This document shows positions 32,504 to 56,389 of a DNA stretch of 64,000 nucleotides, piece after piece; position 1 is the stretch's first letter, and each line of letters starts with the position of its first letter. The stretch covers positions 448,001 to 512,000 of the forward strand of contig CP084166.1 in assembly GCA_021513695.1 (NCBI GenBank), given 5' to 3'. The DNA is from Candidatus Heimdallarchaeum aukensis (GTDB lineage Archaea; Asgardarchaeota; Heimdallarchaeia; Heimdallarchaeales; Heimdallarchaeaceae). The notes below the pieces were generated by a model that saw only the letters and a program-made list of their open reading frames with translations, did no database searches and was not told the origin of the DNA. Both the position numbers and the translations under genes were made by a program.

Positions 32504-32541
32504 ATTCTTTCTTTCTTTTTCTATCTTTTTAACAATTTTTT

Positions 32542-33288: not shown

Positions 33289-33401
33289 TATTTTCGTCGA
33301 AAAACACTTTTATTTAAACTTTTTTTTGTTTTATCAAGATAAAATTATTTAATCATAAAAACAAATTGGGTTTTTAAAAGACCTTTTTTTCTTTAAACTT
33401 A

Positions 33402-34976: not shown

Positions 34977-34997
34977 AATTATTAAGAGGAGAATTTT

Positions 34998-39518: not shown

Positions 39519-41378
39519 CAGGAGATTACACTATCCAGAAATTGAAGAACAACTAAAAATTTTATTAAGCTCAAAATTGTCTGATGAGGAAGTAGAAAAG
39601 TTTGTTTCTTCTTTCAAGAAAGAATATCTCAGTAAATACGCAGAGATTACAGAGGATACTATGCCTGGAGAATTATCTAATGTTGTTGCGGGAAGAATAG
39701 CCAATATATTCAATTTATCTGGTAAATCAATGACAACAGATGCTGCATGTGCTTCTTCTCTTGCTGCTCTGGACATTGCGGTAAAAAGTTTGTTGAATAA
39801 CGATTTTGATACTATTCTTGTTGGCGGAGCAGATAGATCTATGGATGTTTCTTCTTATGTTAAATTCAGTAAGATCGGTGCTCTTTCTGCAACTGGTTCT
39901 CGACCTTTTGATTCCAAGGCAGACGGTTTTGTAATGGGAGAAGGATGTGGTTTTCTTGTCTTGAAGAAATTGAAAAAAGCTATTGAAGACAATGACAAAA
40001 TTTATGCCATAATTGATTCTGTTGGTTCTTCCTCTGATGGTAAAGGAAAAGGAATTACTGCTCCTAATCCTTTAGGACAAAAAGAAGCTATTGAAAGAGC
40101 TCTTGAACAAGCTAAAGTTTCTCCTTCTGAGATAGATTTAATTGAAGCACATGGAACTTCCACCATAGTAGGAGATAAAACAGAAGTTCAAGTTTTAAAT
40201 GAGATTTTCACAGAAAAACAAAAAGAAAGAAAAAGGAAAATAGCTCTTGGTTCAATTAAAAGCCAAATTGGTCATTTAAAGAGCGCAGCAGGTATAGCTT
40301 CTGTTATAAAAGTAGCTTTAGCTCTTGACAAGAAAATTCTTCCACCAACGATAAATGTTCAAGAACTTAATCCTGCGATTGATTGGAATAATTCTAATCT
40401 TTTTGTTAATCTTGATGCTCAACCATGGGAAAAGGTTGATAACTCTATCAGAAGAGCAGGAGTTTCTGCTTTTGGTTTTGGAGGAACAAATTATCATACA
40501 ATCTTGGAAGAATATATTCCAGAAGCACAGTACATAGAAAAAGAAAAGCAACCAATAGTTGAACTAAAAGAACAAAAAGAAGAAGTTTGCTTCCTTTATA
40601 CTGGACAAGGAAGTCAATATTTAGGCATGATAAAGGAACTTTATGATAATTATCCAACTGTTAGAAAAACAATAGATGAAGCTTCAGTTATTGCTAAAGA
40701 GAGTTTAAATGCTGATTTGCGTGAAATAATTTTTGGTTCACCTCAACTTTCCAAAGTTGAAAATGAGGAAAGATTAAGACAAACAGAATACACTCAACCT
40801 TCTCTCTTTGTAGTCGAAGTTGCTTTAACTAGATTATTGAAAGAAAAAGGAATTGAGCCTACAAGAGTAGCTGGACATAGTTTAGGAGAATATACTGCTT
40901 TAGTTGCTGCGGGAGTGTTCTCTTTTGAAGATGGATTAAAAGCTGTAATAGAAAGAGGAAAAGCGATGGCAAAAGCTTCTAAAAGTATCCCTGGAGCAAT
41001 GGCAGCTATTCTTACATCTCAAGAAAAAGTTAAGGAAATTATAGAAAAGGTAAATGAAGGTTATATAACAGTAGCCAATTATAACTCATTAAACCAAACA
41101 GTGATTTCGGGAGAAGAAAAAGCTGTAAACAAAGCTATAGAACTTTTCTCTGCAAGAAAAATAAAAGCAATAAAATTAAATGTTTCAACAGCTTTTCATT
41201 CTATTATTGTTAAAGATGCAGAAATAGAAATGGAGAGAGTGCTTAACAGCCTGACTTACAATAAACCTTCAATTCCTGTCTATTCAAATGTAACGGGAAG
41301 TTTGTACCCTGACAAACCCTCTAAAATTAAAGAACTTCTAATTAATCAGCTCTGTAATTCTGTTCAATGGGTTAAGAT
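37393..41378. repeat. perfect direct tandem duplication, 2 x 1993 bp (copy A 37393-39385, copy B 39386-41378) covering most of KS1 and all of AT
   Basis: Identical sequence at an offset of 1993 nt throughout. Duplicate antisense ORFs appear at 37538/39531, 38325/40318, 38362/40355, 38455/40448. 1993 mod 3 = 1. Deleting one copy restores one continuous ~3,515-aa reading frame (34998..47538 minus 1993). Confidence 0.95.
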
Positions 41379-44300
41379 AATTGAAGAGATGTATAACGAT
41401 GGAGGAAGAATTTTTGTAGAAGTAGGACCTAAAAAAGCATTGTACAACTTTGTTAAAGATATTTTAGGTGAAAAAGAAGACATTCAAACTTTTCTTACAT
41501 TAAACCCGAAAGTAGGAGAGTTAAAATCTTTTAATGATACTGTCTCTAAATTAAAAATGAGCAAAAGAAGAGAAACCGAAACCCCAGTTCAAACTAAAGA
41601 AAAAATAGTTTACAAAGAATCAGCACTAGATGTTTTACTTAAAAATAAAGAGATTAACAACTTGGTCTCTAAACCCTATTTCCGTGAGTATTTGAAAGAG
41701 AACAGCAATCTTCTTTCATCTATAATGAAACAAGGTTACGAGCAGTTCTCAAAGTACAGAGAATCATTGGTTATTGCTGAAAAAGCTAAATATTGGGATA
41801 TAAACTTTGATCTTATTGGTGTTACTGGTGTTGGAATTGGTCTCCCAGGAAAGAATAGAGCTGTTTTCTCTGATGATAATTTTGATCTTATTCTCAATGG
41901 AACAAATCTTATCGAATCTGTTGAAGATACAATAAAACAAGAAACTTTAGACAAAAACATCGTTAGGTTAGTTAAATCTCCTGATGGTAATGCAACTTTT
42001 GAAGCAATTGACGATATAAGTAAAGTTATTCAACTTGCAGCACAGATAGGAGAATTAAACTTCAAAGAATTAGGTATAGAAGATAAATTGGCTAAAGCTT
42101 TAGACTCCACTTTTATTATGGCTATAGGTGCAGGACTAGAAGCGTTGAAAGATGCTGGTATTCCTCTTGTTGAAAGCAAAATAGTTACTTCAACTGGAAA
42201 AACTTTGAAAGGGAGCTGGACTTTACCAGAATCCTTACAACATGATACTGGAATAGTTTTTGCTTCTGCTTTTCCCGGATATGATAATTTAGTAGATGAA
42301 GTAACAAGACATCTTGTAGCTAAATTTGAAAACAAAACTAATAAAGAGATTGAGGAGATATTTGAGCAATTAATTAATGTTGTATCAAACCCTGAAGCAA
42401 AAGAAGAGATCTCTAACTGGTTCTTGGAGAAACAATCTCTACTGGAAGAAAAAGAAGAAAAGTATACTTTTAGTAGAGAGTTCCTTTACAAAGTTTTGTC
42501 TATGGGGCACTCTCAATTTGCCCAATTTATTAAAGCTAAAGGTCCGAATACTCAAGTCAATGCTGCTTGTGCTTCTACAACCCAAGCAATTGGTGTAGCA
42601 GAAGATTGGATAAGAACTGGAAGATGTAAGAGAGTAATAGTAATAGCTGGAGACAATGCTGCAAGCAAGAATCTGTTACCTTGGATAGGTGGGGGATTCT
42701 TAGCAGCTGGGGGAGTAACCACAAAAGCCGATGTTAAAGAAGCTGCTTTACCTTTTGGAAAAGAAAGACATGGATTAATTATAGGTTCAGCTTCTGCAGG
42801 TCTTGTAATTGAAAGCAGAGAATCCTATGAAGAAAGAGGAGTTAAACCAATAGTAGACCTTGTGGGTACTTATATGGCAAATAGTGCTTATCATGGTTCT
42901 AGATTAGATGTCAACCATATTTCTGAAGAACTTGAAAGCTTTATTGAAAAAGTAGAAAGAAGATATAATATCGACAGGAAAAATATCGCTAAAGAAGGTA
43001 TTTTTGTCTCTCATGAAACTTATACACCTGCAAGAGGAGGAAGTGCAGAAGCAGAAATTCAATCACTTCTTAATGTTTTCAAAGAAGATGCTTATTCTAT
43101 GACCATAATAAACACAAAAGGATTTACAGGTCATTCAATGGGTGCAGGAATAGAAGAAGCTGTAGCTATTAAAGCAATAGAAAAAGGTAAGATTCCTCCA
43201 ATTGCTAACATAGAGAAACTTGACCCTGCCTTTTCTAAATTTAAGTTCTCAAAAGGAGAAAAGAGAAGATTTTCCTTCGCTTTGAGATTAGCAGCTGGAT
43301 TTGGGTCACAATTAGCTTTTGCTCTCTTCAGGTTAAATACTTACGACAACAGATTCTCTGCCCAATACAATGAATGGCTCAAGAGTCTTGGTGGTGGCAA
43401 AGAAGAGTTATTTGTTGAAGGCAGAGTACTTAAACTCAAAACAGATAATAAGAAAAAACAAGCTGATTTAGTTAAGAAACCAGCAGTACAAAAAACTGTT
43501 GAAAAGAAAATTAAAACTGTTACAAAAGCACCTACAGATATTCTTCAAGTTGTAAAAGATATTATTTCTGAAAAAACAGGTTATGAAACAGAAGTCATTG
43601 AAGAAAATATGCATTTAGAAGAAGATCTTGGGATTGACAGTATTAAAGCAGCAGAAATAATGAACGATATTAGCGATAAATGGTCAATACCTCAAGAAAA
43701 ACTCTTCGAACAATTTGATATCGATACACCAGGAAAAATTGCAAAGTTCATTTCTGAAAACACAAGCGCTCCTGAAGAGACAAGTTATTCAGTTGAAACA
43801 ACTGTAGCAAAAGAGGAAGTAAAAAGAGCAGAAACTTCTAGTGTTTCAACAGGAGATATTTTAGTGCGAATTAAAGAAGTAATTGGAAAACACACAGGTT
43901 ATGACATTCAAGATCTAGATGAAAACTATGACCTAGAAGAAGATCTGGGAATAGATACAGTAAAACAAGCAGAAATTTTTGGAGATTTAAGAGATTTATT
44001 CGGATTGGATTTAGATGAGACTTATGCTTTAGCAGATTATCGAACAATAGCTGACATTGCCCAAGCAATATCTACAGAGAAACCAGTGGAAAAGGTTAAA
44101 CAAGTGGAAACTGAAGAAAGCGGAGAGATTAGAACAGCACAACAACCAACAATCATATCTGAAGCTGAAAGTTCAATTTCCAGAGAAGAAGTTACAAAAG
44201 AAGTGCTTTCAATTATCTCAGAAATTACAGGATACGATACAGAAGATATAGAAATAGAGATGGATCTAGAGGAAGATTTGGGTGTTGATAGTATCAAGAT

Positions 44301-47300
44301 TGCTGAAATTCTAAGCTCTTTGGGAAGTAAGTTCGACCTTGAATTTGATGAGATGTCTGATCTTTCAGGAATTAGAAATACAGAAGATATAGTGGAAGCA
44401 GTGATAAAAATTAAGCAATCCATTGAACAAACTCAAACCCCAACCAAAACAGAAGAACAATTAGCTGTAAGTCAAAAACTTAAAGTTGAACAAGAAGAAG
44501 AAATAGTTATTCGTAGTGTAGAACCTGTTCTAAAGCCTTTAGAACAAAGTGAAGTAAATAAATTTAATCTAGAAGATAAAAATCTCTTACTTCTAGATAT
44601 TCATTCAAAAGAAGCCAAATATATCTATTCTTTACTTGAACAGAAGAAGGCTAAAATTGAGCTTGTTAGGATTAATTCTGAAGACTCAGAAAAACCAAAT
44701 AATAATAAATATGACTTAATCTTAATCTTATTACCAGATGATCACAATTCTGCAAATGATACTAAATACTTTGAGCAACTATTTCTTACCCTACAACAGC
44801 TAGAGTACAATCATAATACTAAGATTGTTTCTTACTCTGTTGAAGACTATTTAGACTCTAAAAAGGAGATAATTCCTTTAAGTGGAGGTATATCCGCTTT
44901 TGTTAAGACTATTGGTCAAGAATTTGAACTAGACATTAAACATGTTTATTCCACAAAACCTGAAGAACTAGTTACAGAGTTGGAAAATTGGGATAAAAAC
45001 CTTGAAGTTATTTATTCAGAGGGTAAAAGATACATTTTCAGTCACATGAGAAAAATACCTCTAGAACAATTACAAAAAGAAAAAATCGAACTTACAGAAG
45101 ATGATCTTATACTTGTTACTGGAGGAGCAAGAGGTATCACTTATGAATGTATTAAAGAACTTACAAAAGATGCTAAACCTTCAATTGCTATCGTTGGTAG
45201 AACTAAACTTCCAGAAGATGTATCTGAATTGCTCTTCTTAACCGACAAAGAAATAGCAAACAAAAAAGAAGAGATAAAAGAAAAACTTGCTCAAGAAAAT
45301 GAAAAAGTTACTCCAGTGATGATAGAAAAAGCTTGGAAACGCTTCCTAAACACTGTTGAAATTGCAAAGAATATTCTCTATTTAATTGAAAATGAAGTGA
45401 ATGCTAACTATTATTCTGCAGATGTTTCAGATGAAGAACAAATGAAAAGTGTTTTGAGTCAAATTGAAGAAGATTTCGAAAAAACTATAACTCTTATTGT
45501 ACATGGTGCGGGAATAGAAGAATCTAAAGCTTTCAAGAAAAAGAAACTAGAAATGGCAAAGAAAATAGTACAAGTAAAGATTTCAGGGTTATACAATATT
45601 CTAAATAATATAGATCAATCTAATTTGAAGAAGATCATCTGCTTTAGCTCAATTGCAGGAAGATTTGGTAATAGAGGACAAGTGGATTATGCTTTTGCAA
45701 ATGGTTATCTAGCTAGAACATGCTGGAAGTTTAAACAACAAGGAATTAACGCTCTAGCTATAGATTGGTCAGCTTGGGCAGATATAGGCATGGCAACACA
45801 AGGTTCTATTCTTAAAGTGCTGAAAGCTGCAGGAATAACTCCCATTCCATTAAAAGAAGGAATAAGAATATTTTCTGAACTAACCAATTACAATGTAGAA
45901 CAAAGTGAATTAATAGTTGCAGGAAAACTTGGACTTCTTCTAAAAGAAATAGAAGATAAAAAAACAAGTGGTCAACACGATACTAGTATGAACACAGAGA
46001 GTTATCCAATGATTGATGAAATTAGAAAAACAGACAACGGTTTTATTGCTTCAAAGACACTAAAATATGATTATGACTTATACATGAGAGATCATCAAAT
46101 CCAAGGATTGCCAATATTTCCTGCAGTAATGGGATTAGAATTCTTCGCTGAGATGTTCAAACTTACAACAGAAAAAGATGTTTACGCAATAGCAGAAGTA
46201 TCGTTTAGAGAAGCAATTAAACAGTTTAAGAACAAAAATGTTGAACTTCAATGTTCATTTGATACAGAAAGAGGGGATATGGAAATTAAAACAATCTTTA
46301 CAGACATTAAAGGAGTTCAAAAAGAAAAGAAACACTTCTTCTGTAAGTCTGTAAAAGATACGACAGAAAAAAGCTATAAGAAAAAGAAGATAGAAAAAAG
46401 AGTGATACCACTACTTTCCAAAGAAGTGATCTATCAGCTTTTCTTCCATGGTCCAAGTTTTCAAGTTTTGGAGAATTTGAATGAGATAAAAGGAAATATC
46501 ATCTCCACTAATGTCCAGATTCCAAATCTGCCTTTATTCAAAGATGAAGAATTGAAAACTATTCTCGTTCCTCGAGCAATAGAAGCGGCTTTACAGACAG
46601 CAGGGTTGTATGACATGTTCATTAACAATGTTGTTTCATTGCCATCAAAAATAAAAAACTTGGAAGTATACAAGGAAACAGAAGCTGTTTTTGCTGAAGC
46701 TGAATTCCTAAAGATAGAGGAAAGACATAGTTTCTTCAATGTAAAGATTTACGATGCTGAAGGAGAAGTAATAATGGTTTTAGAACAACTAGGAATGATA
46801 CATACTTCTATGCCCATAAATTTGGACGAAAAAGGAAAGAAACTCTTCCAGATGATTAAAGGATATCATGAAATAAGAACAAAAGTAGATGACGAAAAAG
46901 TAGCTGTTTTACCTATTCACAAAGTAGTAGAAGAATACAGAAAAAATAGACAAGAACTAGAAAATAAACTAGTTGCTTACGAAAAAACAAGATTTACTAA
47001 AATATCCAACGAAAAAAGAAAAATGGAATATTTAGCGGGAGTAATCCTTGCTAAAGAACTTTTTTCCAAATATGAAAACATTACCGATTTCAGAAGTATA
47101 GAAATAAAAAAGAAGAGTAAGGGGCAACCTTACTTTTTCAACAGACAACTAAAAGAAGAAACGGATTGGTATGTTTCTATTAGTCATTCAAATGATTTCG
47201 CTGTAGTCTCTATTGAGAAACAACCAGTAGGAATAGACATAGAAAAAGTAGAAGAAAGAAGTAAAAGTTTCTATGGCGAAGTTTTTTCAGATTATGAATT

Positions 47301-47538
47301 ATCAAAAATTGCTGATGACCATACTTTAGGAACAAAATATTGGACTGCTAAAGAGTCATTAACTAAAGCATTAGGAGAAGGATTACATATTAAACTAAAA
47401 GAAATTGAGTTTGGTTACAACGATGGCAAATTTGATCTAAAAAAATATCCTTCTTCTCTAAAACAAGATCAATTGCAGACTTCTATTGAATCTATTGAAG
47501 CAGCAGGTTATGTTGTTTCTAAATGTGTAATAAAATAA
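39577..47538 (+). CDS. type I FAS/PUFA-synthase-like megasynthase, C-terminal part: (duplicate KS1 fragment, AT), KS2, ACP x3, ketoreductase, dehydratase, 4'-phosphopantetheinyl transferase
   Basis: Restarts at an internal Met inside the duplicated KS. KS2: IGVTGVGIGLPG, NAACASTTQA, GHSMGAG. ACPs: LEEDLGIDSIK, LEEDLGIDTVK, LEEDLGVDSIK. KR: LVTGGARGITYE Rossmann. DH: DHQIQGLPIFPAV (HxxxGxxxxP). PPTase: VGIDIEKV and YWTAKESLTKALGEG (W-x-x-KE-A-x-x-K-x-x-G). Confidence 0.8.
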   Translation: MSDEEVEKFVSSFKKEYLSKYAEITEDTMPGELSNVVAGRIANIFNLSGKSMTTDAACASSLAALDIAVKSLLNNDFDTILVGGADRSMDVSSYVKFSKIGALSATGSRPFDSKADGFVMGEGCGFLVLKKLKKAIEDNDKIYAIIDSVGSSSDGKGKGITAPNPLGQKEAIERALEQAKVSPSEIDLIEAHGTSTIVGDKTEVQVLNEIFTEKQKERKRKIALGSIKSQIGHLKSAAGIASVIKVALALDKKILPPTINVQELNPAIDWNNSNLFVNLDAQPWEKVDNSIRRAGVSAFGFGGTNYHTILEEYIPEAQYIEKEKQPIVELKEQKEEVCFLYTGQGSQYLGMIKELYDNYPTVRKTIDEASVIAKESLNADLREIIFGSPQLSKVENEERLRQTEYTQPSLFVVEVALTRLLKEKGIEPTRVAGHSLGEYTALVAAGVFSFEDGLKAVIERGKAMAKASKSIPGAMAAILTSQEKVKEIIEKVNEGYITVANYNSLNQTVISGEEKAVNKAIELFSARKIKAIKLNVSTAFHSIIVKDAEIEMERVLNSLTYNKPSIPVYSNVTGSLYPDKPSKIKELLINQLCNSVQWVKIIEEMYNDGGRIFVEVGPKKALYNFVKDILGEKEDIQTFLTLNPKVGELKSFNDTVSKLKMSKRRETETPVQTKEKIVYKESALDVLLKNKEINNLVSKPYFREYLKENSNLLSSIMKQGYEQFSKYRESLVIAEKAKYWDINFDLIGVTGVGIGLPGKNRAVFSDDNFDLILNGTNLIESVEDTIKQETLDKNIVRLVKSPDGNATFEAIDDISKVIQLAAQIGELNFKELGIEDKLAKALDSTFIMAIGAGLEALKDAGIPLVESKIVTSTGKTLKGSWTLPESLQHDTGIVFASAFPGYDNLVDEVTRHLVAKFENKTNKEIEEIFEQLINVVSNPEAKEEISNWFLEKQSLLEEKEEKYTFSREFLYKVLSMGHSQFAQFIKAKGPNTQVNAACASTTQAIGVAEDWIRTGRCKRVIVIAGDNAASKNLLPWIGGGFLAAGGVTTKADVKEAALPFGKERHGLIIGSASAGLVIESRESYEERGVKPIVDLVGTYMANSAYHGSRLDVNHISEELESFIEKVERRYNIDRKNIAKEGIFVSHETYTPARGGSAEAEIQSLLNVFKEDAYSMTIINTKGFTGHSMGAGIEEAVAIKAIEKGKIPPIANIEKLDPAFSKFKFSKGEKRRFSFALRLAAGFGSQLAFALFRLNTYDNRFSAQYNEWLKSLGGGKEELFVEGRVLKLKTDNKKKQADLVKKPAVQKTVEKKIKTVTKAPTDILQVVKDIISEKTGYETEVIEENMHLEEDLGIDSIKAAEIMNDISDKWSIPQEKLFEQFDIDTPGKIAKFISENTSAPEETSYSVETTVAKEEVKRAETSSVSTGDILVRIKEVIGKHTGYDIQDLDENYDLEEDLGIDTVKQAEIFGDLRDLFGLDLDETYALADYRTIADIAQAISTEKPVEKVKQVETEESGEIRTAQQPTIISEAESSISREEVTKEVLSIISEITGYDTEDIEIEMDLEEDLGVDSIKIAEILSSLGSKFDLEFDEMSDLSGIRNTEDIVEAVIKIKQSIEQTQTPTKTEEQLAVSQKLKVEQEEEIVIRSVEPVLKPLEQSEVNKFNLEDKNLLLLDIHSKEAKYIYSLLEQKKAKIELVRINSEDSEKPNNNKYDLILILLPDDHNSANDTKYFEQLFLTLQQLEYNHNTKIVSYSVEDYLDSKKEIIPLSGGISAFVKTIGQEFELDIKHVYSTKPEELVTELENWDKNLEVIYSEGKRYIFSHMRKIPLEQLQKEKIELTEDDLILVTGGARGITYECIKELTKDAKPSIAIVGRTKLPEDVSELLFLTDKEIANKKEEIKEKLAQENEKVTPVMIEKAWKRFLNTVEIAKNILYLIENEVNANYYSADVSDEEQMKSVLSQIEEDFEKTITLIVHGAGIEESKAFKKKKLEMAKKIVQVKISGLYNILNNIDQSNLKKIICFSSIAGRFGNRGQVDYAFANGYLARTCWKFKQQGINALAIDWSAWADIGMATQGSILKVLKAAGITPIPLKEGIRIFSELTNYNVEQSELIVAGKLGLLLKEIEDKKTSGQHDTSMNTESYPMIDEIRKTDNGFIASKTLKYDYDLYMRDHQIQGLPIFPAVMGLEFFAEMFKLTTEKDVYAIAEVSFREAIKQFKNKNVELQCSFDTERGDMEIKTIFTDIKGVQKEKKHFFCKSVKDTTEKSYKKKKIEKRVIPLLSKEVIYQLFFHGPSFQVLENLNEIKGNIISTNVQIPNLPLFKDEELKTILVPRAIEAALQTAGLYDMFINNVVSLPSKIKNLEVYKETEAVFAEAEFLKIEERHSFFNVKIYDAEGEVIMVLEQLGMIHTSMPINLDEKGKKLFQMIKGYHEIRTKVDDEKVAVLPIHKVVEEYRKNRQELENKLVAYEKTRFTKISNEKRKMEYLAGVILAKELFSKYENITDFRSIEIKKKSKGQPYFFNRQLKEETDWYVSISHSNDFAVVSIEKQPVGIDIEKVEERSKSFYGEVFSDYELSKIADDHTLGTKYWTAKESLTKALGEGLHIKLKEIEFGYNDGKFDLKKYPSSLKQDQLQTSIESIEAAGYVVSKCVIK

Positions 47539-47572
47539 TATGGAGATTAAAAAAAAAAAAAGGTGATAATAT

Positions 47573-48334
47573 ATGTTACAACTGAATTATGATATAAAAT
47601 TTAGAAAGGATTTCATTCATGGAATTCTTTATTTGCCGGATGAAGAGGGGCAGTTCCCTTTAGTTATAAGATTGAACGGTTTTCCGGGCAATTCTCCAGA
47701 AAAAGAAGAACAAAGATTAGCAGATATTATCACCCAGAATAATATGGCTTTTTATGCCTTTGACTATGTAGGAGTAAGAAAAAGTACAGGGACATTTAAT
47801 TATTATACGAGTTTGGAAAACATAAATACTGTTATAACAGATTTATCACATCATCCTCGAATTAATCCTGCAAAGATTGCTCTTCTTGGAGAAAGCTTCG
47901 GAGGAGCAATGGCAATAAGCCAAGGAGTAAGAGACCAAAGAATAAAATGTATTGTTTTAAGGTCTCCTGTATATGATACTGAAGTTATTCCTCAAATACC
48001 GTCTTTTAATACTTTAGTTAAAATATGGTCCAGAAACAATCAAATACGTTTCCCTAAAGGAGACATAAGTGAATTATACTACAAACAAACTAATCTTTAC
48101 AATCCTAAAAAAATAGCAAATTTAGTTAATTGCCCCGTAAAATTGATTGCAGGAGATAAAGATGAGTTGTTGGAAGTTAAGGGTTTTAGAGAACTTTACA
48201 AATGTTTACCACGGAAACTAAGAAAAGGAATTGATATCATTAAAGGAGCAGATCATAACTTTACTAAACAAAAACAGTTTATAGAATTAAAGAGTGAACT
48301 TTCCAGCTTTTTGACTTGTTGCCTTTTAGGGTAA
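47573..48334 (+). CDS. alpha/beta-hydrolase (putative thioesterase/acyl-hydrolase)
   Basis: GESFG nucleophile elbow (GxSxG), later acidic residue in IAGDKDEL and His in GADHNF. GGTGA SD-like element 8 nt upstream. Confidence 0.65.
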   Translation: MLQLNYDIKFRKDFIHGILYLPDEEGQFPLVIRLNGFPGNSPEKEEQRLADIITQNNMAFYAFDYVGVRKSTGTFNYYTSLENINTVITDLSHHPRINPAKIALLGESFGGAMAISQGVRDQRIKCIVLRSPVYDTEVIPQIPSFNTLVKIWSRNNQIRFPKGDISELYYKQTNLYNPKKIANLVNCPVKLIAGDKDELLEVKGFRELYKCLPRKLRKGIDIIKGADHNFTKQKQFIELKSELSSFLTCCLLG

Positions 48335-48346
48335 ATAACTTATGGA

Positions 48347-48838
48347 GTGCAAAAGATGAAGAAAAAAATAATCTACAACAATGAAGAATACATAATAGAA
48401 GCTAAAGGAGAAGACGAGATAGTAGTGAATAATAAGACTTTCAAAGTTAACTTAAAAGAGAAAAACAAGAATTTTTTCAATATAGAAATTCAAGGAAAGA
48501 AGTTTATTATAGAAGTAAGAGAAGGAGAATTCTATTTAGACGGAGAGAAAATAGAAAAATTATCAATTAGCCCCTATTTTCCACAATTAAAGAAACAAAA
48601 ACAAATGATTAACTCTCAAAAAGAAGTAGTAAAAGCACCTATACCAGGAACTATAACTCAAATACTAGTTAAAGAAGGAGATACAGTAAAAAAAGACCAA
48701 GAATTATTTATCCTTGAAGCGATGAAAATGAGAAATAGAATCTTAACAACCATTGACAAAGGTGTAGTAAAAAAAATCTACGTTAGCGAGAATGAAACTG
48801 TATCTCAAGATCAAAAACTAGCTATAATTGAAAATTAA
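48347..48838 (+). CDS. biotinyl-domain protein (biotin carboxyl carrier protein-like)
   Basis: C-terminal biotinyl domain with ILEAMKMRNRI (E-A-M-K-M biotinylation motif). N-terminal ~80 aa atypical (no Ala/Pro linker). Confidence 0.7.
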   Translation: MQKMKKKIIYNNEEYIIEAKGEDEIVVNNKTFKVNLKEKNKNFFNIEIQGKKFIIEVREGEFYLDGEKIEKLSISPYFPQLKKQKQMINSQKEVVKAPIPGTITQILVKEGDTVKKDQELFILEAMKMRNRILTTIDKGVVKKIYVSENETVSQDQKLAIIEN

Positions 48839-49073
48839 ATAAAAAAATAACAAAACAAATTTATTGCAAAAATAATTTAAAATTCGCACAAATATTTGGA
48901 TACTTCTTCTTTTTTAAATTCAAATTTTATCAAAAACTTGAAAAGAATGCTAAATAGTCTATTTTTTAAATAAATAGGAAACAAAAAAAGTTTAGACTAA
49001 GTGGTTAGTTTTTGAAGTATAAATGAGGAGAAATAGGAACTGTATAATTTAAAGAAGAATAAAAAAAATAGGA

Positions 49074-49661
49074 CTAATCAACCATAAGTTTGGGAAATTT
49101 TGAAAGTTCCATTAATTTCATGAATTTTTTTCCTTTCTTAAAAATAGTATCTATACATTCAATTATTATATCCAAAAGCTCTTCTACTTTTTCTTTTTTT
49201 ACAGGTTTTAGTCCATGAGCAAGTATTGATTCATTTCTCTCTTTTAAAAGGTCTTTCATTTTGTTGGATGAAGAAAACATTTTCCCAAGATCATCATTCA
49301 AATCGTCTAAAACTAGATAACAATCATATAATCCCAACTTTACTTTTGAACCATTACTTTTTCTTTCTTTGAAATAACTTATACGTTGAGAAGAAACTCC
49401 TAACTTTTCTAATTGCTCTAAGGATATGTCATGGGGAGGTAAATTGTAGGCACTCTTTAATCTATACTGTGCCATAAGTTCTACAGCTCTGTAGAGCCTA
49501 GCCATTGCATCATCAAACTTTTCTTCTTTTAATCGACGTTTTGCGTTATTTAATAAATCTGCAAGAAAATAAAGGTCTTTCTCTATTTTTTTATCACTTT
49601 TATGTAACAAGTCGCACAAAAATTCTTTATTAAAACTATATTCTTTGCCAAGCTGTTTCAT
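49074..49661 (-). pseudogene. 5'-truncated copy of csx1/csm6-like gene (HEPN half only), produced by the tandem duplication
   Basis: 195 aa identical to the C-terminal half of the 409-aa CARF-HEPN protein (51770..52999). The N-terminal CARF domain is replaced by the duplication junction at 49690/49691. Confidence 0.6.
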
Positions 49662-49679
49662 TTTATCAAAAGCTTCTTT

Positions 49680-50234
49680 ATGGTTAAATCTACTAAAATA
49701 TCCAACGAAAAAAGAAAAATGGAATATTTAGCGGGAGTAATCCTTGCTAAAGAACTTTTTTCCAAATATGAAAACATTACCGATTTCAGAAGTATAGAAA
49801 TAAAAAAGAAGAGTAAGGGGCAACCTTACTTTTTCAACAGACAACTAAAAGAAGAAACGGATTGGTATGTTTCTATTAGTCATTCAAATGATTTCGCTGT
49901 AGTCTCTATTGAGAAACAACCAGTAGGAATAGACATAGAAAAAGTAGAAGAAAGAAGTAAAAGTTTCTATGGCGAAGTTTTTTCAGATTATGAATTATCA
50001 AAAATTGCTGATGACCATACTTTAGGAACAAAATATTGGACTGCTAAAGAGTCATTAACTAAAGCATTAGGAGAAGGATTACATATTAAACTAAAAGAAA
50101 TTGAGTTTGGTTACAACGATGGCAAATTTGATCTAAAAAAATATCCTTCTTCTCTAAAACAAGATCAATTGCAGACTTCTATTGAATCTATTGAAGCAGC
50201 AGGTTATGTTGTTTCTAAATGTGTAATAAAATAA
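49680..50234 (+). pseudogene. chimeric ORF: junction-derived ATG fused to a duplicated PPTase-domain fragment of the megasynthase
   Basis: From residue 5 onward identical to the last ~180 aa of 39577..47538 (GIDIE and WxxKEAxxK PPTase motifs). The ATG at 49680-49682 comes from copy-A sequence antisense to csx1. Could encode a standalone PPTase if expressed. Confidence 0.5.
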
Positions 50235-50269
50235 TATGGAGATTAAAAATAAAAAAAAGGTGATAATAT

Positions 50270-51031
50270 ATGTTACAACTGAATTATGATATAAAATTTA
50301 GAAAGGATTTCATTCATGGAATTCTTTATTTGCCGGATGAAGAGGGGCAGTTCCCTTTAGTTATAAGATTGAACGGTTTTCCGGGCAATTCTCCAGAAAA
50401 AGAAGAACAAAGATTAGCAGATATTATCACCCAGAATAATATGGCTTTTTATGCCTTTGACTATGTAGGAGTAAGAAAAAGTACAGGGACATTTAATTAT
50501 TATACGAGTTTGGAAAACATAAATACTGTTATAACAGATTTATCACATCATCCTCGAATTAATCCTGCAAAGATTGCTCTTCTTGGAGAAAGCTTCGGAG
50601 GAGCAATGGCAATAAGCCAAGGAGTAAGAGACCAAAGAATAAAATGTATTGTTTTAAGGTCTCCTGTATATGATACTGAAGTTATTCCTCAAATACCGTC
50701 TTTTAATACTTTAGTTAAAATATGGTCCAGAAACAATCAAATACGTTTCCCTAAAGGAGACATAAGTGAATTATACTACAAACAAACTAATCTTTACAAT
50801 CCTAAAAAAATAGCAAATTTAGTTAATTGCCCCGTAAAATTGATTGCAGGAGATAAAGATGAGTTGTTGGAAGTTAAGGGTTTTAGAGAACTTTACAAAT
50901 GTTTACCACGGAAACTAAGAAAAGGAATTGATATCATTAAAGGAGCAGATCATAACTTTACTAAACAAAAACAGTTTATAGAATTAAAGAGTGAACTTTC
51001 CAGCTTTTTGACTTGTTGCCTTTTAGGGTAA
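50270..51031 (+). CDS. alpha/beta-hydrolase, duplicate copy (identical to 47573..48334)
   Basis: 100% identical 253-aa product. Confidence 0.65.
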   Translation: MLQLNYDIKFRKDFIHGILYLPDEEGQFPLVIRLNGFPGNSPEKEEQRLADIITQNNMAFYAFDYVGVRKSTGTFNYYTSLENINTVITDLSHHPRINPAKIALLGESFGGAMAISQGVRDQRIKCIVLRSPVYDTEVIPQIPSFNTLVKIWSRNNQIRFPKGDISELYYKQTNLYNPKKIANLVNCPVKLIAGDKDELLEVKGFRELYKCLPRKLRKGIDIIKGADHNFTKQKQFIELKSELSSFLTCCLLG

Positions 51032-51043
51032 ATAACTTATGGA

Positions 51044-51517
51044 GTGCAAAAGATGAAGAAAAAAATAATCTACAACAATGAAGAATACATAATAGAAGCT
51101 AAAGGAGAAGACGAGATAGTAGTGAATAATAAGACTTTCAAAGTTAACTTAAAAGAGAAAAACAAGAATTTTTTCAATATAGAAATTCAAGGAAAGAAGT
51201 TTATTATAGAAGTAAGAGAAGGAGAATTCTATTTAGACGGAGAGAAAATAGAAAAATTATCAATTAGCCCCTATTTTCCACAATTAAAGAAACAAAAACA
51301 AATGATTAACTCTCAAAAAGAAGTAGTAAAAGCACCTATACCAGGAACTATAACTCAAATACTAGTTAAAGAAGGAGATACAGTAAAAAAAGACCAAGAA
51401 TTATTTATCCTTGAAGCGATGAAAATGAGAAATAGAATCTTAACAACCATTGACAAAGGTGTAGTAAAAAAATCTACGTTAGCGAGAATGAAACTGTATC
51501 TCAAGATCAAAAACTAG
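51044..51517 (+). pseudogene. biotinyl-domain protein, duplicate copy with 1-nt homopolymer deletion changing the C-terminal ~20 aa
   Basis: Identical to 48347..48838 until …KGVVKK. An A7 vs A8 tract shifts the frame (…STLARMKLYLKIKN). The EAMKM site is retained. Confidence 0.5.
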
Positions 51518-51769
51518 CTATAATTGAAAATTAAATAAAAAAATAACAAAACAAATTTATTGCAAAAATAATTTAAAATTCGCACAAATATTTGGATACT
51601 TCTTCTTTTTTAAATTCAAATTTTATCAAAAACTTGAAAAGAATGCTAAATAGTCTATTTTTTAAATAAATAGGAAACAAAAAAAGTTTAGACTAAGTGG
51701 TTAGTTTTTGAAGTATAAATGAGGAGAAATAGGAACTGTATAATTTAAAGAAGAATAAAAAAAATAGGA

Positions 51770-52999
51770 CTAATCAACCATAAGTTTGGGAAATTTTGAA
51801 AGTTCCATTAATTTCATGAATTTTTTTCCTTTCTTAAAAATAGTATCTATACATTCAATTATTATATCCAAAAGCTCTTCTACTTTTTCTTTTTTTACAG
51901 GTTTTAGTCCATGAGCAAGTATTGATTCATTTCTCTCTTTTAAAAGGTCTTTCATTTTGTTGGATGAAGAAAACATTTTCCCAAGATCATCATTCAAATC
52001 GTCTAAAACTAGATAACAATCATATAATCCCAACTTTACTTTTGAACCATTACTTTTTCTTTCTTTGAAATAACTTATACGTTGAGAAGAAACTCCTAAC
52101 TTTTCTAATTGCTCTAAGGATATGTCATGGGGAGGTAAATTGTAGGCACTCTTTAATCTATACTGTGCCATAAGTTCTACAGCTCTGTAGAGCCTAGCCA
52201 TTGCATCATCAAACTTTTCTTCTTTTAATCGACGTTTTGCGTTATTTAATAAATCTGCAAGAAAATAAAGGTCTTTCTCTATTTTTTTATCACTTTTATG
52301 TAACAAGTCGCACAAAAATTCTTTATTAAAACTATATTCTTTGCCAAGCTGTTTCATTTTATCAAAAGCTTCTTTATGGTTAAATCTATCCCATAAACTA
52401 AAAGAATCAATTAAATTGTAATAGTATTCTTTTGTTTTGTCTCCGTTTAATAATACTATTTCATCTAAATAATTTCGTGCAGCATTATATCGATAATTAT
52501 TGAAAGATTCTTTCATTCTCCTTAACAATAATTTGTCATATACTGAATAAAGACTTTGCTCGACAATTCTTTCAGTACCTGAAAGAACAACACCATCTTT
52601 TCTTCTGCCTGAAATCAAAGTTAGTTTTTTGTGAAAAAGTACTGCAGCGATAGCTGCACTCATAGTCATTGTTTTTGTTCCAGAAGTATAGTCAATTATT
52701 ATTTCAGAATTGGAATACTTGTATATCTCATTCTGAATTAGTTGAAAACAACTATCAAAATCATCAATAGAAGTAAATTGAATAAATTCGTAAGAAGACA
52801 ATTCCTTGTTATACTGTGATTTATGTTGCCTTTCTATCTCCTTTATTGTTTTACGACTGTCTTCAGAACCAAAAAAAACAATATGATCAGGTTTATAGTG
52901 TTCAATACAAACTAGCAGTCCATGAGCTAAACTCTCAATTTTCTTGTCAACGTCCTCCCCTATTGCAGTTCCTACAGTCATAAAAAGAATACGTTTCAT
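51770..52999 (-). CDS. csx1: CRISPR ancillary CARF-HEPN protein (Csx1/Csm6 family)
   Basis: N-terminal Rossmann-like CARF (MKRILFMTVGTA…; DYTSGTKTMTM matches D-x-T-x-G-x-K/R). C-terminal RNESILAH matches the HEPN R-x4-6-H motif. Directly downstream of the cmr operon. Confidence 0.7.
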   Translation of the reverse strand: MKRILFMTVGTAIGEDVDKKIESLAHGLLVCIEHYKPDHIVFFGSEDSRKTIKEIERQHKSQYNKELSSYEFIQFTSIDDFDSCFQLIQNEIYKYSNSEIIIDYTSGTKTMTMSAAIAAVLFHKKLTLISGRRKDGVVLSGTERIVEQSLYSVYDKLLLRRMKESFNNYRYNAARNYLDEIVLLNGDKTKEYYYNLIDSFSLWDRFNHKEAFDKMKQLGKEYSFNKEFLCDLLHKSDKKIEKDLYFLADLLNNAKRRLKEEKFDDAMARLYRAVELMAQYRLKSAYNLPPHDISLEQLEKLGVSSQRISYFKERKSNGSKVKLGLYDCYLVLDDLNDDLGKMFSSSNKMKDLLKERNESILAHGLKPVKKEKVEELLDIIIECIDTIFKKGKKFMKLMELSKFPKLMVD

Positions 53000-53111
53000 G
53001 GTAAACCACTAACTAACTTTTAAAATAATTAAATCAAAATTTTTAAGCGTTACTAAAAACAAATATGTAAATAAAGCAATTACAAGGTAAAAATCCGTCA
53101 TCTTACTCAAC

Positions 53112-53933
53112 TTAAATTACTTTGAAACGGCCATAACCTAATGCAGTTTTTGCACCTAGTCCATGAATTTTCAATATGCCTGGCAGTAAGCTATTAATAA
53201 AATTCAAGTCTTCATCCATTTCAGTATAGTTTCTCTTTGGTAATAGCACAATTTGAAACTCTTGTTCAACATCAACAGCAAGAAACGGAATAGGAATAGG
53301 CTTCATCCAATCTCCTGGTGCTTCTTTTTCCAAATAATATTGTGAATAATGAGGAGTAATAATTTCTCCTTTTAATCTTGGAAATTTAGTTGGTAACATG
53401 TCTAAAAATATCATAGAACCAACTTCATTTGAGAGAGTTTTTTGATTTTCTTCTTTTGATAAAGAACCAAAAATTCTCTTTATTTGTTTTTTTTCGTTAT
53501 CGTCGTCCATTAGATCTATTATATAATCACGGATAGCACCTTTCAACGAGCTACCAGGTAGAAAAGGAACACCTAATGTATAGTGCCACAGAAAACCCAC
53601 TTCAATTGGATGTGGAAGACCAACACCTGTAATAAATGGAGTCAAAGTTCTAACATAAATAATTCTTCCATTTCGCTGTTCAGACAACAATAGTCTATGC
53701 TCAATGCATCTCTTAAGTAAAAAATTTTCATGTTTTACTTCATTATCAGTAAGTTTAGTAAAATGTTCAATCCATTTTTTCTTTCCCTCACTTATATATT
53801 CGATGTAATTATTTTTTTTCCACTTGTCAAAAAATTTTGAGTAGACTAAACCCTTGTTTGCACATTTATAGTTTTCATAGAAAAAGTTTTGTTCATTAAA
53901 CTTATGTCCTTTATAGATTACATTAGTCAGTTT
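53112..53933 (-). CDS. cmr6: type III-B RAMP Cmr6 (Cas7 group); ORF track start at 53690 (TTG), but the stop-free frame extends to 53933
   Basis: GLPHPIEVGFLWHYTLGVPFLPGSSLKGAIRDY (P-x-(I/L)PGSS-x-KG-x-x-R RAMP hallmark). The same frame stays open for 81 further codons upstream, up to the stop at 53934-53936, and encodes plausible protein (KLTNVIYKGHKFNEQNFFYENYKCANKGLVYSKFFDKWKKNNYIEYISEGKKKWIEHFTKLTDNEVKHENFLLKRCIEHRLL…), but contains no in-frame ATG/GTG/TTG. Confidence 0.55.
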   Translation of the reverse strand, partial: KLTNVIYKGHKFNEQNFFYENYKCANKGLVYSKFFDKWKKNNYIEYISEGKKKWIEHFTKLTDNEVKHENFLLKRCIEHRLLLSEQRNGRIIYVRTLTPFITGVGLPHPIEVGFLWHYTLGVPFLPGSSLKGAIRDYIIDLMDDDNEKKQIKRIFGSLSKEENQKTLSNEVGSMIFLDMLPTKFPRLKGEIITPHYSQYYLEKEAPGDWMKPIPIPFLAVDVEQEFQIVLLPKRNYTEMDEDLNFINSLLPGILKIHGLGAKTALGYGRFKVI

Positions 53934-54223
53934 TCATTCACCTCAACCTTGGCTTGAGCTAGTTTTTTTAGCCATCCAAGGAACTCTAAAGTTTCTATCT
54001 GTGCAAGAATATACTCATCTTGTGTTGCATTTGTAATGTTATAAATTAAATCATTAGAATCTGTAAAAATATTCACCTTTTTTAACCATGTTTCTATAAT
54101 ATCAACAATTTTTTTATGGGCCTTTTTATCGCCATTATCGGGTTTAGGAGTTGCACTTGCTAGTTCCATTGCAATGGCTTGTCCAAGACCATTCATTACA
54201 ATTGTAGCTGGTAAACTTTTCAC
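53927..54223 (-). CDS. cmr5: small alpha-helical subunit, Cmr5/Cas11-like (by position and size)
   Basis: 98-aa predicted all-helical protein between cmr4 and cmr6. No diagnostic motif. Confidence 0.4.
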   Translation of the reverse strand: MKSLPATIVMNGLGQAIAMELASATPKPDNGDKKAHKKIVDIIETWLKKVNIFTDSNDLIYNITNATQDEYILAQIETLEFLGWLKKLAQAKVEVNEN

Positions 54224-54327
54224 ATAACTTAAAAAGCTTGAATTGTTTATTTCGTCATCATCAATTACTTCATTTATTGATGCTAAAGCAAATTTAGCCC
54301 TATCGTTATCTGATAAAAACTCCAGAT

Positions 54328-55275
54328 TTATTCACCTCCTTTATCTGCATCAATTTTATCTATATGATGAATGATTTTTTCTGCATAATCCAGTTTTACA
54401 TGAAACCAACCTTGACCAACAGTTTCATTTCCTCCGATCTGGAGAAAACAACTATTAGTTAATAAATTGTCCAAAAAATCAATTCCATCTTCCTCAGAAA
54501 AAACTAAGCAATACATTAGAGTATCAGAGGAAATGTACTCTTCGTACCACAAATTTCTGCTTGACTTTGTCTCTGAATTTAATATATTCCTTGCTCGTAT
54601 TTCTAACCCAAAATTTGCGAACCATTTAAAATCATCATTATGAAGTATAACAAGCTGGTCTTTTAGTCTGTTCCTTACATCATCATCGGGTATCATAGCT
54701 GATAATAAATTAGCCAAATTGTCTATACCTTCACTTTCTTCTTTTTCAAATTGCCGTTCTTCAAGAAAAATATATTGTTCATTCACACAAGATAGAGTTT
54801 TTCCTCTTGTCACTTCGGGAATTGTAAATGAATATTTTATTCCTAAGCGTTTTAGGTCTCTTTTCAGTCTTTCTAATATATATGGACAAGTAATCCATCT
54901 ATAATTCGTCAATAAACTTCGTACTGGTAGCAATAGTAAGCGTGCATCAGAAATTAATAATTTTCCAGCAGAATCAGAACTTCCAAAGTACTTATCAACC
55001 TTTTTATTTGTTATATTAGAATTAACACCAACATTCTCATTAGCTAAACCACGCAGTGAGCCTTTTAAACTAGTGCTTGGTATGAAAGGATAACTTGTAA
55101 TTGTTTCACGAGCTACGGGACAATCTACTATTGATGTAGGATGTCCAGTTCCTGTATGAACAAATGTTTCAGCCAACATTTTCATTATTTTCCCTTTTAA
55201 ATTCGACTTCTTTTCATTTTGTTCCATATTAATCACCTCTTTCCCATTTTCCAAAAAGAAATTGTCCAAATCCAA
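54328..55275 (-). CDS. cmr4: type III-B RAMP Cmr4 (Cas7 backbone subunit)
   Basis: LAETFVHTGTGHPTSIVDCPVARE…YPFIPSTSLKGSLRG, classic Cmr4/Csm3 N-terminal signature. Confidence 0.75.
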   Translation of the reverse strand: MDLDNFFLENGKEVINMEQNEKKSNLKGKIMKMLAETFVHTGTGHPTSIVDCPVARETITSYPFIPSTSLKGSLRGLANENVGVNSNITNKKVDKYFGSSDSAGKLLISDARLLLLPVRSLLTNYRWITCPYILERLKRDLKRLGIKYSFTIPEVTRGKTLSCVNEQYIFLEERQFEKEESEGIDNLANLLSAMIPDDDVRNRLKDQLVILHNDDFKWFANFGLEIRARNILNSETKSSRNLWYEEYISSDTLMYCLVFSEEDGIDFLDNLLTNSCFLQIGGNETVGQGWFHVKLDYAEKIIHHIDKIDADKGGE

Positions 55276-56389
55276 ATTCAGTTAATTTACCTATTTTATT
55301 GGAAACCAATCTTTTTAATGAAGATGTATTTTTTTCATCAAAAAAGAATGTAGACCCTGGAGGAATAAAAGGTCTGACTTCTAGAGGTTCTTTTTTTACT
55401 GCATTCCATCCTCCAATGCGAAGAATATCACCAATGTTAGCACCTATAACCTCAGAACCAAACTTTTTTGACAAAAATGTCATAACTTCATCTAGAGAAT
55501 CTCCTAAATATGCAGGAGTAATAAATGTAATTGTAAAATTATCAGAAACTGTTGAAATAGGGGGTATTTTATCAATTACTGGGAATTCTATTTCCTTGTA
55601 ACTAATATTAGCTATCTTTCCTTCTCCACCTATACGGTTACACCAATTTTCAATTGAGTCAAGTAAATCAATACCATTGACTTTCATACAAAGTACAATA
55701 TTTTCTAACCTTATCATTTGACGCGAAAATAAATTTCCAGTAACTGCAGTATTGGTTGTAGGATCTATTTCAATACCAATCTCATTTTCTTTTTGCCATA
55801 ATTTATTCTCAGAGAGAAAACGAACATTTTTAAGACTTTCAGAAGAAAAGGACAATAATCTTTCTAGATCATCAAATTTAACATAATAATTTTGTAATGT
55901 TTTATAACCATAATTACCACTTCTTCTTGGAAGTAAAATACTCTTTCTATCATGTTTGTCTTTACTTATACTTGACAAATACTTTTGTTTAGAAGGAATT
56001 AAATAATCCAGATCTACAATCTCTTCGTTTTTTTGAGAGGAAATGTGTCCAATTATATGTAAAGGAACAGGAAATAAAGGATGAAATTGATTATCCTCTT
56101 TTAATAATAAGTAAGGACCAAAAAAGTCTAAAGGCCCAAGATCGGTACCATCACCCAATTTACTAATTATATTTTCATCCCATTTACTGCTTCCATCCCA
56201 TCCATAATATCGAGCTAGTAAGGATCTTATTAGTCCAGTAATTGAAAATGGAGATGGTGGAAAAACACTTTTAACAAAATCTGACGAACTATCACTTTTA
56301 TAGAAAGAATAGTTTCCTCTAAAAAACAACCTATCTAAAGGTTCAATTATGAAACACTGTTCCTTAGCCATTTTTATTACCAACCCCAT
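55229..56389 (-). CDS. cmr3: type III-B Cmr3 (Cas5 group)
   Basis: IIEPLDRLFFRGNYSF…SVFPPSPFSITGLIRS (PLDPLFFRD / FPPSPST-x-x-GALR Cmr3 hallmarks). Confidence 0.7.
   Translation of the reverse strand: MGLVIKMAKEQCFIIEPLDRLFFRGNYSFYKSDSSSDFVKSVFPPSPFSITGLIRSLLARYYGWDGSSKWDENIISKLGDGTDLGPLDFFGPYLLLKEDNQFHPLFPVPLHIIGHISSQKNEEIVDLDYLIPSKQKYLSSISKDKHDRKSILLPRRSGNYGYKTLQNYYVKFDDLERLLSFSSESLKNVRFLSENKLWQKENEIGIEIDPTTNTAVTGNLFSRQMIRLENIVLCMKVNGIDLLDSIENWCNRIGGEGKIANISYKEIEFPVIDKIPPISTVSDNFTITFITPAYLGDSLDEVMTFLSKKFGSEVIGANIGDILRIGGWNAVKKEPLEVRPFIPPGSTFFFDEKNTSSLKRLVSNKIGKLTEFGFGQFLFGKWERGD

Follow-up and report, generated by a model that had tools for sequence, protein, structure and literature searches.

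Does the genome of Candidatus Heimdallarchaeum aukensis truly carry two consecutive copies of a 2.7-kb segment, and do these copies differ from each other? The question is raised by a window of 64,000 nucleotides (nt; contig CP084166.1, positions 448,001 to 512,000; coordinates below are those of the window), in which a segment reaching from the 3' end of a PfaA-like megasynthase gene, across genes for an alpha/beta hydrolase and a biotin carboxyl carrier protein (BCCP), into a convergent Csm6-like gene is present twice in tandem. The explanation we favor, with some reservation, is that ~2,697 bp were truly, and very recently, duplicated head to tail in the sequenced Ca. Heimdallarchaeum aukensis population, and that the differences between the copies, both within A-runs, are consensus errors.

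Architecture of the 2.7-kb repeat

Base-by-base comparison revealed two head-to-tail copies without spacer and with a period of 2,696 nt:

46995-49690 (no strand): duplication unit A, from self-BLAST and base comparison; Logan contig L002 (2,699 nt) corresponds to 46995-49692
49691-52386 (no strand): duplication unit B, differing from unit A by two 1-nt indels; L002 fits 49691-52388 just as well
49689-49692 (no strand): novel junction, at which the unit end is joined to the unit start, with a single shared TA (base comparison)

In a self-BLAST of the window, 46992-49692 aligned with 49688-52388 over 2,702 columns at 99.89% identity, with one edge mismatch and two gaps, and a repeat search returned matching pairs spaced 2,696 or 2,697 nt apart. 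The 2.7-kb repeat was not reported by Tandem Repeats Finder, because the longest period of that program is 500. A repeat of 2.7 kb at 99.9% identity cannot have arisen by chance. Internally, units A and B differed at exactly two sites, both of them 1-nt indels in A-runs. Unit A comprises the last 181 codons of the megasynthase gene, which encode a 4'-phosphopantetheinyl transferase (PPTase) domain, followed by the genes for the hydrolase and BCCP and, beyond the convergent intergenic region, by the 3' (HEPN) part of the Csm6-like gene.

The junction reads ...GGTTAAATC-TA-CTAAAATATCC..., and the one TA (49691-49692) is common to both breakpoints, whose contexts are ...AAGATT-TA-CTAAAAT... (ATTTA) on the left and ...AAATC-TA-tcccata... 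(ATCTA) on the right. The left breakpoint lies at codon 3335 of the 3,515 codons of the synthase gene and the right one at about codon 204 of the Csm6-like (HEPN) gene. Blunt joining of overlapping contigs was ruled out for this junction because TA occurs there only once. An origin as a mobile element was likewise ruled out, as the unit carries no integrase or transposase gene and ends inside two unrelated genes. The original prediction, which had been made from the letters of the sequence, had placed the unit boundaries, the A-run differences and the microhomology of ~2 nt (ta) correctly. Self-BLAST, domain scans and translations also bore out the overall anatomy that it described, in which a tandem duplication leaves two fragments at the junction and doubles the hydrolase and BCCP genes.

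Contig evidence on the junction and on the A-run differences

The reality of the junction was judged from Logan contigs of run SRR15988954, in which contigs overlap by 30 nt. Four of them (L002, L003, L045 and L049) were used, and these were 100% identical to the window (the two 1-nt length differences relative to L002 are treated below). L002 is a single unit-length contig, the unit plus its TA, that fits either copy exactly. On the left, L003 (13,596 nt) starts at 31436, and its end at 47024 (46995+29) was computed from its length; on the right, L045 runs from 63690 down to 52359 (52388-29). Each of these flanking contigs overlaps L002 by 30 nt, with the overlap on the unit side. The location of these overlaps inside the unit therefore implies a second path into its first 30-mer and a second path out of its last 30-mer. 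A loop from the unit end to the unit start predicts exactly the observed breaks, along with a junction contig of 58 nt. A deletion polymorphism as their cause was ruled out, since it would place the 30-nt overlaps in the flanks, whereas they were seen inside the unit. A positive control was provided by a genuine intragenic tandem repeat with a period of 288 nt, the exact part of which begins at 26547: L049 (15972-26576) ends precisely 30 nt into that part. Reads joining the unit end to the unit start thus very probably exist. We hold with good confidence that the junction is present at appreciable frequency in the sequenced population; contig breaks at both unit ends, together with a control repeat behaving in the same way, make it likely that the duplication is real in that enrichment. 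Collapse to one copy in an independent assembly had been proposed as a test of the duplication. This test does not apply in its simple form, because de Bruijn assembly always collapses repeats, but the contigs do break exactly at the unit ends.

The genome stems from Wu et al. 2022 (PMC8813620), who assembled Illumina paired-end (PE150) reads with metaSPAdes, followed by two rounds of LRScaf scaffolding with Nanopore reads from DNA amplified by multiple displacement amplification (MDA) and partly by PCR, and by Pilon correction at 346x. The duplication is not mentioned in that paper, and the run number SRR15988954 was not found in its text or supplements.

A second tandem duplication in the same region behaved differently:

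37393-41378 (no strand): separate exact tandem duplication, 2 x 1,993 nt at 100% identity, joined bluntly at 39385/39386 and causing a frameshift in the megasynthase

Self-BLAST and base comparison showed that 37393-39385 equals 39386-41378 exactly. Since 1,993 is not a multiple of three, the synthase is shifted out of frame and split into an open reading frame (ORF) of 1,506 amino acids (aa; UJG41226) and a 2,711-aa piece (UJG42174.1). The latter starts at an ATT codon at 39403, 18 nt past the junction, and its accession is out of series with those of its neighbors; such a start suggests that the annotation worked around a gene which the duplication had broken. Removal of one 1,993-nt copy restored an ORF of 3,515 aa, colinear over residues 1-3515 with the protein of the sister species Ca. 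H. endolithica (strain PR6) at 95% identity. Most likely, the organism encodes one intact 3,515-aa PfaA-like synthase, like its sister species. L003 runs unbroken through this region with a single copy, and the 1,993-nt junction is therefore absent or rare in the very data that reveal the 2.7-kb unit. The shorter duplication is probably an assembly artefact or else a minority or rare variant. LRScaf, which joins contigs at any negative gap estimate, could be the source of such an artefact.

Could the 2.7-kb repeat be of the same kind? The chromosome would then hold one copy, the second having been introduced by loop traversal in metaSPAdes, by merging or gap filling in LRScaf, or by a chimeric MDA- or PCR-derived Nanopore read. 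The amplified Nanopore libraries and the scaffolder in the pipeline, including its treatment of negative gaps, lend this explanation some weight, as do the nearby exact duplication contradicted by a contiguous read-derived contig, the lack of the 2.7-kb duplication in every relative (see below) and its going unmentioned in the source paper. However, the breaks in the read-derived contigs coincide to the base with the two unit ends, which requires extra paths into the start and out of the end of the unit in accurate reads, and the control repeat shows the same contig behavior. Random chimeras would be too infrequent to survive graph cleaning, and a single shared TA stands at the junction instead of a blunt concatenation. 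Moreover, the unsupported 1,993-nt duplication shows no contig break, and so displays the pattern of an absent junction in the same data. We regard an assembly artefact as unlikely for the 2.7-kb repeat.

Even if the junction is real, it may lie off the main chromosome, either in a minority of cells that carry the duplication (or a higher amplification) or on an excised 2.7-kb circle. The contig topology would be the same whether the junction came from a tandem duplication, from a circle or from a mixed population. Phi29 MDA favors small circles. A circle would be strongly amplified by MDA in the Nanopore library, and the source paper confirms that MDA was used. However, genes for replication, an integrase or a transposase are lacking in the unit, graph cleaning did not remove the junction in reads that appear to stem from unamplified DNA, and the long-read scaffolding of the authors placed two copies in the chromosome. 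We regard a minority variant or circle as improbable.

Several points weigh against a real chromosomal duplication and temper our preference for it. The support for the junction is indirect, coming from contig topology, and the end of L003 was deduced from its length, its last 55 nt being unseen. The platform and origin of SRR15988954 were deduced from the 100% identity and the quality of the contigs, and the deposited assembly is not fully independent of the Logan contigs, because both probably go back to one set of reads. The assembly route, with MDA-amplified Nanopore reads and two rounds of a scaffolder, is artefact-prone, and a second tandem duplication 5.6 kb upstream that lacks read-contig support lowers trust in the region. 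Finally, the copy number is two or more, and the duplication may be carried by all or by only a part of the cells.

With a real duplication as the preferred explanation, the next question is whether its copies differ. Two sites are concerned:

47549-47561 (+): A13 run in unit A; unit B (50245-50258) and L002 have A5TA8; between the megasynthase stop and the hydrolase start
51466-51472 (+): A7 run in unit B; unit A (48769-48776) and L002 have A8; shifts the reading frame of BCCP copy B over its last 20 codons

L002 carries both A5TA8 and A8, which amounts to one 1-nt deletion in each window copy relative to this contig. L001, a 94%-identical relative, likewise keeps a T inside the first run, and only A8 leaves BCCP in frame with a complete biotinyl domain. 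Between the window and the Logan contigs (~41 kb in total) there were no discrepancies in ~35.5 kb of unique sequence and two in the 5.4 kb of duplicated sequence; the probability of both falling into the duplicated part is ~0.017. The unit contains twelve homopolymers of at least 7 nt, and A13 is the longest homopolymer of the window. Short-read polishing is poor inside exact repeats, where reads map ambiguously. Both A-run differences are probably uncorrected 1-nt consensus deletions, because L002 is undeleted at both sites, the discrepancies are confined to the repeat and polishing is poor there. Most likely, the two copies are identical in the actual DNA. The original prediction had left the choice between divergence and homopolymer sequencing errors undecided; the undeleted state of L002 at both sites tips it toward errors.

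If the differences were instead real, slippage would have removed the T of A5TA8 in copy A and one A of A8 in copy B after a real duplication, and BCCP copy B would be a pseudogene. Both changes do lie in slippage-prone A-runs, and L002 is compatible with two alleles, as a de Bruijn contig pops such bubbles and shows one allele per site. Yet L002 is undeleted, and hence ancestral, at both sites, an outcome with a chance of 1 in 4 if the alleles are present at half depth but certain if both deletions are errors. Two indels without a single substitution in 2.7 kb, both of them A-run deletions, match the usual error profile of a Nanopore-derived consensus, and the agreement with read-derived contigs is perfect everywhere outside the repeat. 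Real divergence between the copies is accordingly improbable in our view, and we return to identical copies with two consensus errors.

Genes of the unit and junction by-products

Genes were named from Pfam and NCBIfam scans. NCBI annotates all duplicated genes and fragments as proteins, and the proteins of the window correspond exactly to UJG41225-UJG41234 (3,081,793-bp record). Those in and around the unit are as follows:

34998-47538 (+): PfaA-like megasynthase with the domains ER-KS-AT-KS-like-ACPx3-KR-DH-PPTase; also split by the 1,993-nt duplication in the record
47573-48334 (+): alpha/beta hydrolase copy A, 253 aa, UJG41227.1
48356-48838 (+): BCCP copy A, intact, 160 aa, UJG41228.1, with an EAMKM biotinylation motif
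49074-49661 (-): HEPN-only fragment, 195 aa, UJG41229.1, a junction by-product
49680-50234 (+): PPTase fragment ORF, 184 aa (NCBI version 171 aa, UJG41230.1)
50270-51031 (+): alpha/beta hydrolase copy B, protein identical to copy A, UJG41231.1
51053-51517 (+): BCCP copy B, 154 aa, UJG41232.1; EAMKM kept, C-terminal 20 aa replaced by 14 out-of-frame residues
51770-52999 (-): intact CARF-6H-HEPN effector gene, 409 aa, TIGR02710 family, UJG41233.1

The synthase comprises a FabK/NMO-like enoyl reductase, KS, AT, a second KS-like region, three ACPs, KR, DH and the C-terminal PPTase. Its TIGR02813 score (969 bits) falls just short of the cut-off of 1010. The tail of BCCP copy B reads ...VVKKSTLARMKLYLKIKN, compared with ...VVKKIYVSENETVSQDQKLAIIEN in copy A, and according to the translation the altered part begins 17 residues downstream of the second Met of EAMKM. 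Pfam Biotin_lipoyl matched copy A over positions 2-73 of 73 and copy B only over positions 2-55 of 73. A BCCP copy with ~20 altered C-terminal residues had been predicted as a consequence of the duplication. The alteration is present in the record, but its cause is probably a consensus error and not the duplication. With both A-run deletions read as errors, the altered tail of copy B is therefore probably an artefact of the record.

Two further ORFs are by-products of the junction. The HEPN-only fragment corresponds to residues 215-409 of the full effector protein, starting at Met215, and includes the RNESILAH motif; domain scan and translation bore out that it lacks the sensor domain. On the plus strand, translation confirmed that the junction brings an ATG at 49680 into frame with the PPTase part of the megasynthase. 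The first four codons of this ORF (MVKS) are read antisense to the Csm6-like gene, in the last bases of unit A, and the sequence continues with TKISNEKRK..., that is, with megasynthase residues 3335-3515. The 184-aa fragment matches HetI profile positions 49-192 of 235 and AASDHPPT_N positions 35-98 of 100, and so does not contain both pseudo-symmetric halves of the Sfp/HetI type in complete form, its first ~35 to 45 residues being missing. Exact look-up of this ORF and of the 409-aa Csm6-like protein among called genes gave no match, in the first case because the GenBank start differs and in the second because the gene is split across two Logan contigs.

The 409-aa gene is predicted to encode a Csm6-like CARF-HEPN effector of the TIGR02710 type. 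TIGR02710 was matched at 212.2 bits over residues 27-385, well above the cut-off of 83.9, whereas the cas_csm6 equivalog TIGR02672 scored 45.2 and missed its cut-off of 150. A Csa3_N/Rossmann-like domain (residues 38-126) is followed by Csm6_6H (154-228) and Csm6 HEPN (241-383) domains, with RNESILAH at residue 356. The gene forms the end of a cmr1-6 type III-B operon, with cmr1-6 at 53112-59569. The original prediction had spoken of the 5' half of a csx1 gene as duplicated. Half of such a gene is indeed duplicated, but it is the 3' (HEPN) half, and the gene is better described as a TIGR02710-type Csm6-like gene than as a demonstrated csx1; no Csx1-specific model was among the matches.

Origin, neighboring loci and comparison with known systems

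The repeat probably arose by illegitimate joining, either when replication switched templates or by the joining of ends; the two sites involved share only TA, one lying in the PPTase-coding end of the PfaA-like megasynthase gene and the other in the middle of the convergent Csm6-like gene. Two nucleotides of homology are barely above chance, which argues for a homology-independent join. As in any tandem duplication, nothing would have been lost: the megasynthase gene would remain intact across the left flank and unit A, and the Csm6-like gene across unit B and the right flank. The HEPN-only fragment, the near-complete PPTase fragment and a spare hydrolase and BCCP gene would be by-products of the junction. 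Within the convergent intergenic region of 235 nt, runs of T6, T6 and T5 occur on the plus strand and runs of T8 and T7 on the minus strand; judged by their sequence, these are plausible archaeal terminators. Given these terminator-like tracts, the second copies and fragments, which have no evident promoter, would probably depend on read-through and be silent or weakly expressed. The duplication probably has no function and would be expected to disappear again through homologous recombination. A dosage benefit of an extra hydrolase and BCCP is possible, if unsupported. We consider the 2.7-kb feature to be probably an ordinary structural variant, neutral and transient.

Comparison with relatives bears on its age. 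In the closed sister genome of Ca. H. endolithica PR6 (locus L004, 93 to 94% identical here), everything is present in single copy, including one 3,515-aa synthase. All 41 Asgard loci recovered with the hydrolase contained exactly one PPTase domain, one hydrolase and one BCCP. The left breakpoint is crossed without interruption by L001 and L004, and the right one by three JGI contigs (L046-48, 96 to 99% identical), in which an intact HEPN gene stands beside BCCP. Neither the 2.7-kb nor the 1,993-nt junction sequence was found in JGI metagenome contigs, a weakly informative result, since the related populations there are 96 to 99% identical and assembled through the right breakpoint. As no relative examined carries the duplication, it thus appears to be private to the sequenced population and very recent.

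Both duplications might also be real variants that occur at different frequencies in one enrichment population, each with 0 to 2 nt of homology at its junction. We consider this improbable. If it were true, homology-independent tandem duplication would seem to be unusually frequent in a close archaeal relative of eukaryotes, or the lipid/PfaA-like locus to have been under selection during enrichment, and the raw process behind the elevated duplication rates that have been inferred for that lineage could be watched in action.

The unit straddles the border of two larger loci. On one side lies an acyl-lipid gene cluster (31775-48838) of bacterial or eukaryote style in a Heimdallarchaeon. It encodes a PlsY-like glycerol-3-phosphate acyltransferase, a biotin-protein ligase, the beta subunit of an acyl-CoA carboxylase, the 3,515-aa PfaA-like synthase, the hydrolase and BCCP. 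The synthase-hydrolase-BCCP core occurs in nearly all of the 41 loci (L004-L044), which come from Asgard metagenome-assembled genomes (Heimdall, Hod, Loki and Thor), the synthase part being visible in 36 to 37 of them within the sequence covered. Our literature searches found no relevant account of an Asgard PfaA-like or polyketide synthase (PKS) megasynthase; such a cluster could bear on the archaeal-eukaryotic "lipid divide." Directly adjoining it is the complete type III-B cmr1-6 operon with the TIGR02710 CARF-HEPN gene (51770-59569, minus strand). This module is missing at the same position in PR6 (L004) and in the 94%-identical L001 and is present in JGI contigs L046-48; from this distribution it appears to be a locally variable insertion or replacement.

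Elsewhere in the window, intragenic tandem repeats were found at 26543-27274 and 27643-28736 (ORF 25796-30244, minus strand) and at 15597-16286, in large surface-type proteins with FG-GAP/TSP3 repeats; their periods are 288 nt at 99.8% identity, ~150 nt at 80 to 83% and 144 nt at 75%. The start of L003 (31436-31465) lies inside an ORF without family match (30492-31616), where the window has no repeat. This break may come from a repeat elsewhere in the genome, a strain variant or another structural variant.

These results matter chiefly as a caution about the quality of a widely used reference genome, one of only a few from Asgard archaea that are closed. By-products or probable errors have entered GenBank and UniProt as UJG41229 (HEPN fragment), UJG41230 (PPTase fragment), UJG41232 (frameshifted BCCP) and the split megasynthase (UJG41226 plus the 2,711-aa piece). 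Counts of gene families, "giant proteins," CARF/HEPN effectors and duplications taken from the record would be slightly inflated. Should reads confirm the junction, the locus would be a clean example of a nearly homology-free tandem duplication in an Asgard population.

Among known systems, the short-junction, RecA-independent tandem duplications of bacteria such as Salmonella and Escherichia coli, reportedly reviewed by Reams and Roth in "Mechanisms of gene duplication and amplification," resemble the 2.7-kb repeat in most respects. In both, a kilobase-scale segment is repeated head to tail with zero to a few nucleotides of homology at the junction, each boundary gene keeps one intact copy, truncated or chimeric ORFs arise at the junction, and the copies are identical, which implies a very recent origin and expected instability. 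The present case differs in that it concerns an uncultivated Asgard archaeon in an enrichment metagenome, with no dosage selection known. The second comparison is with false duplications in long-read or hybrid assemblies, which share near-identical copies with homopolymer indels only and a background of noisy, amplified long reads. The neighboring 1,993-nt duplication fits this class, whereas at the 2.7-kb unit contigs from accurate reads branch exactly at its ends, a pattern not expected of an entirely false duplication. Residual polishing errors inside repeats are addressed by repeat-aware polishers such as Polypolish. Finally, the intact effector gene resembles the CARF-HEPN ribonucleases of type III systems (Csm6/Csx1) in its Rossmann-like (CARF-type), 6H and HEPN domains, the latter with an R-x6-H motif, and in its position at the end of a cmr1-6 operon. 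In contrast to natural stand-alone HEPN families, the fragment at 49074-49661, which lacks the sensor domain, is best described as an accidental truncation.

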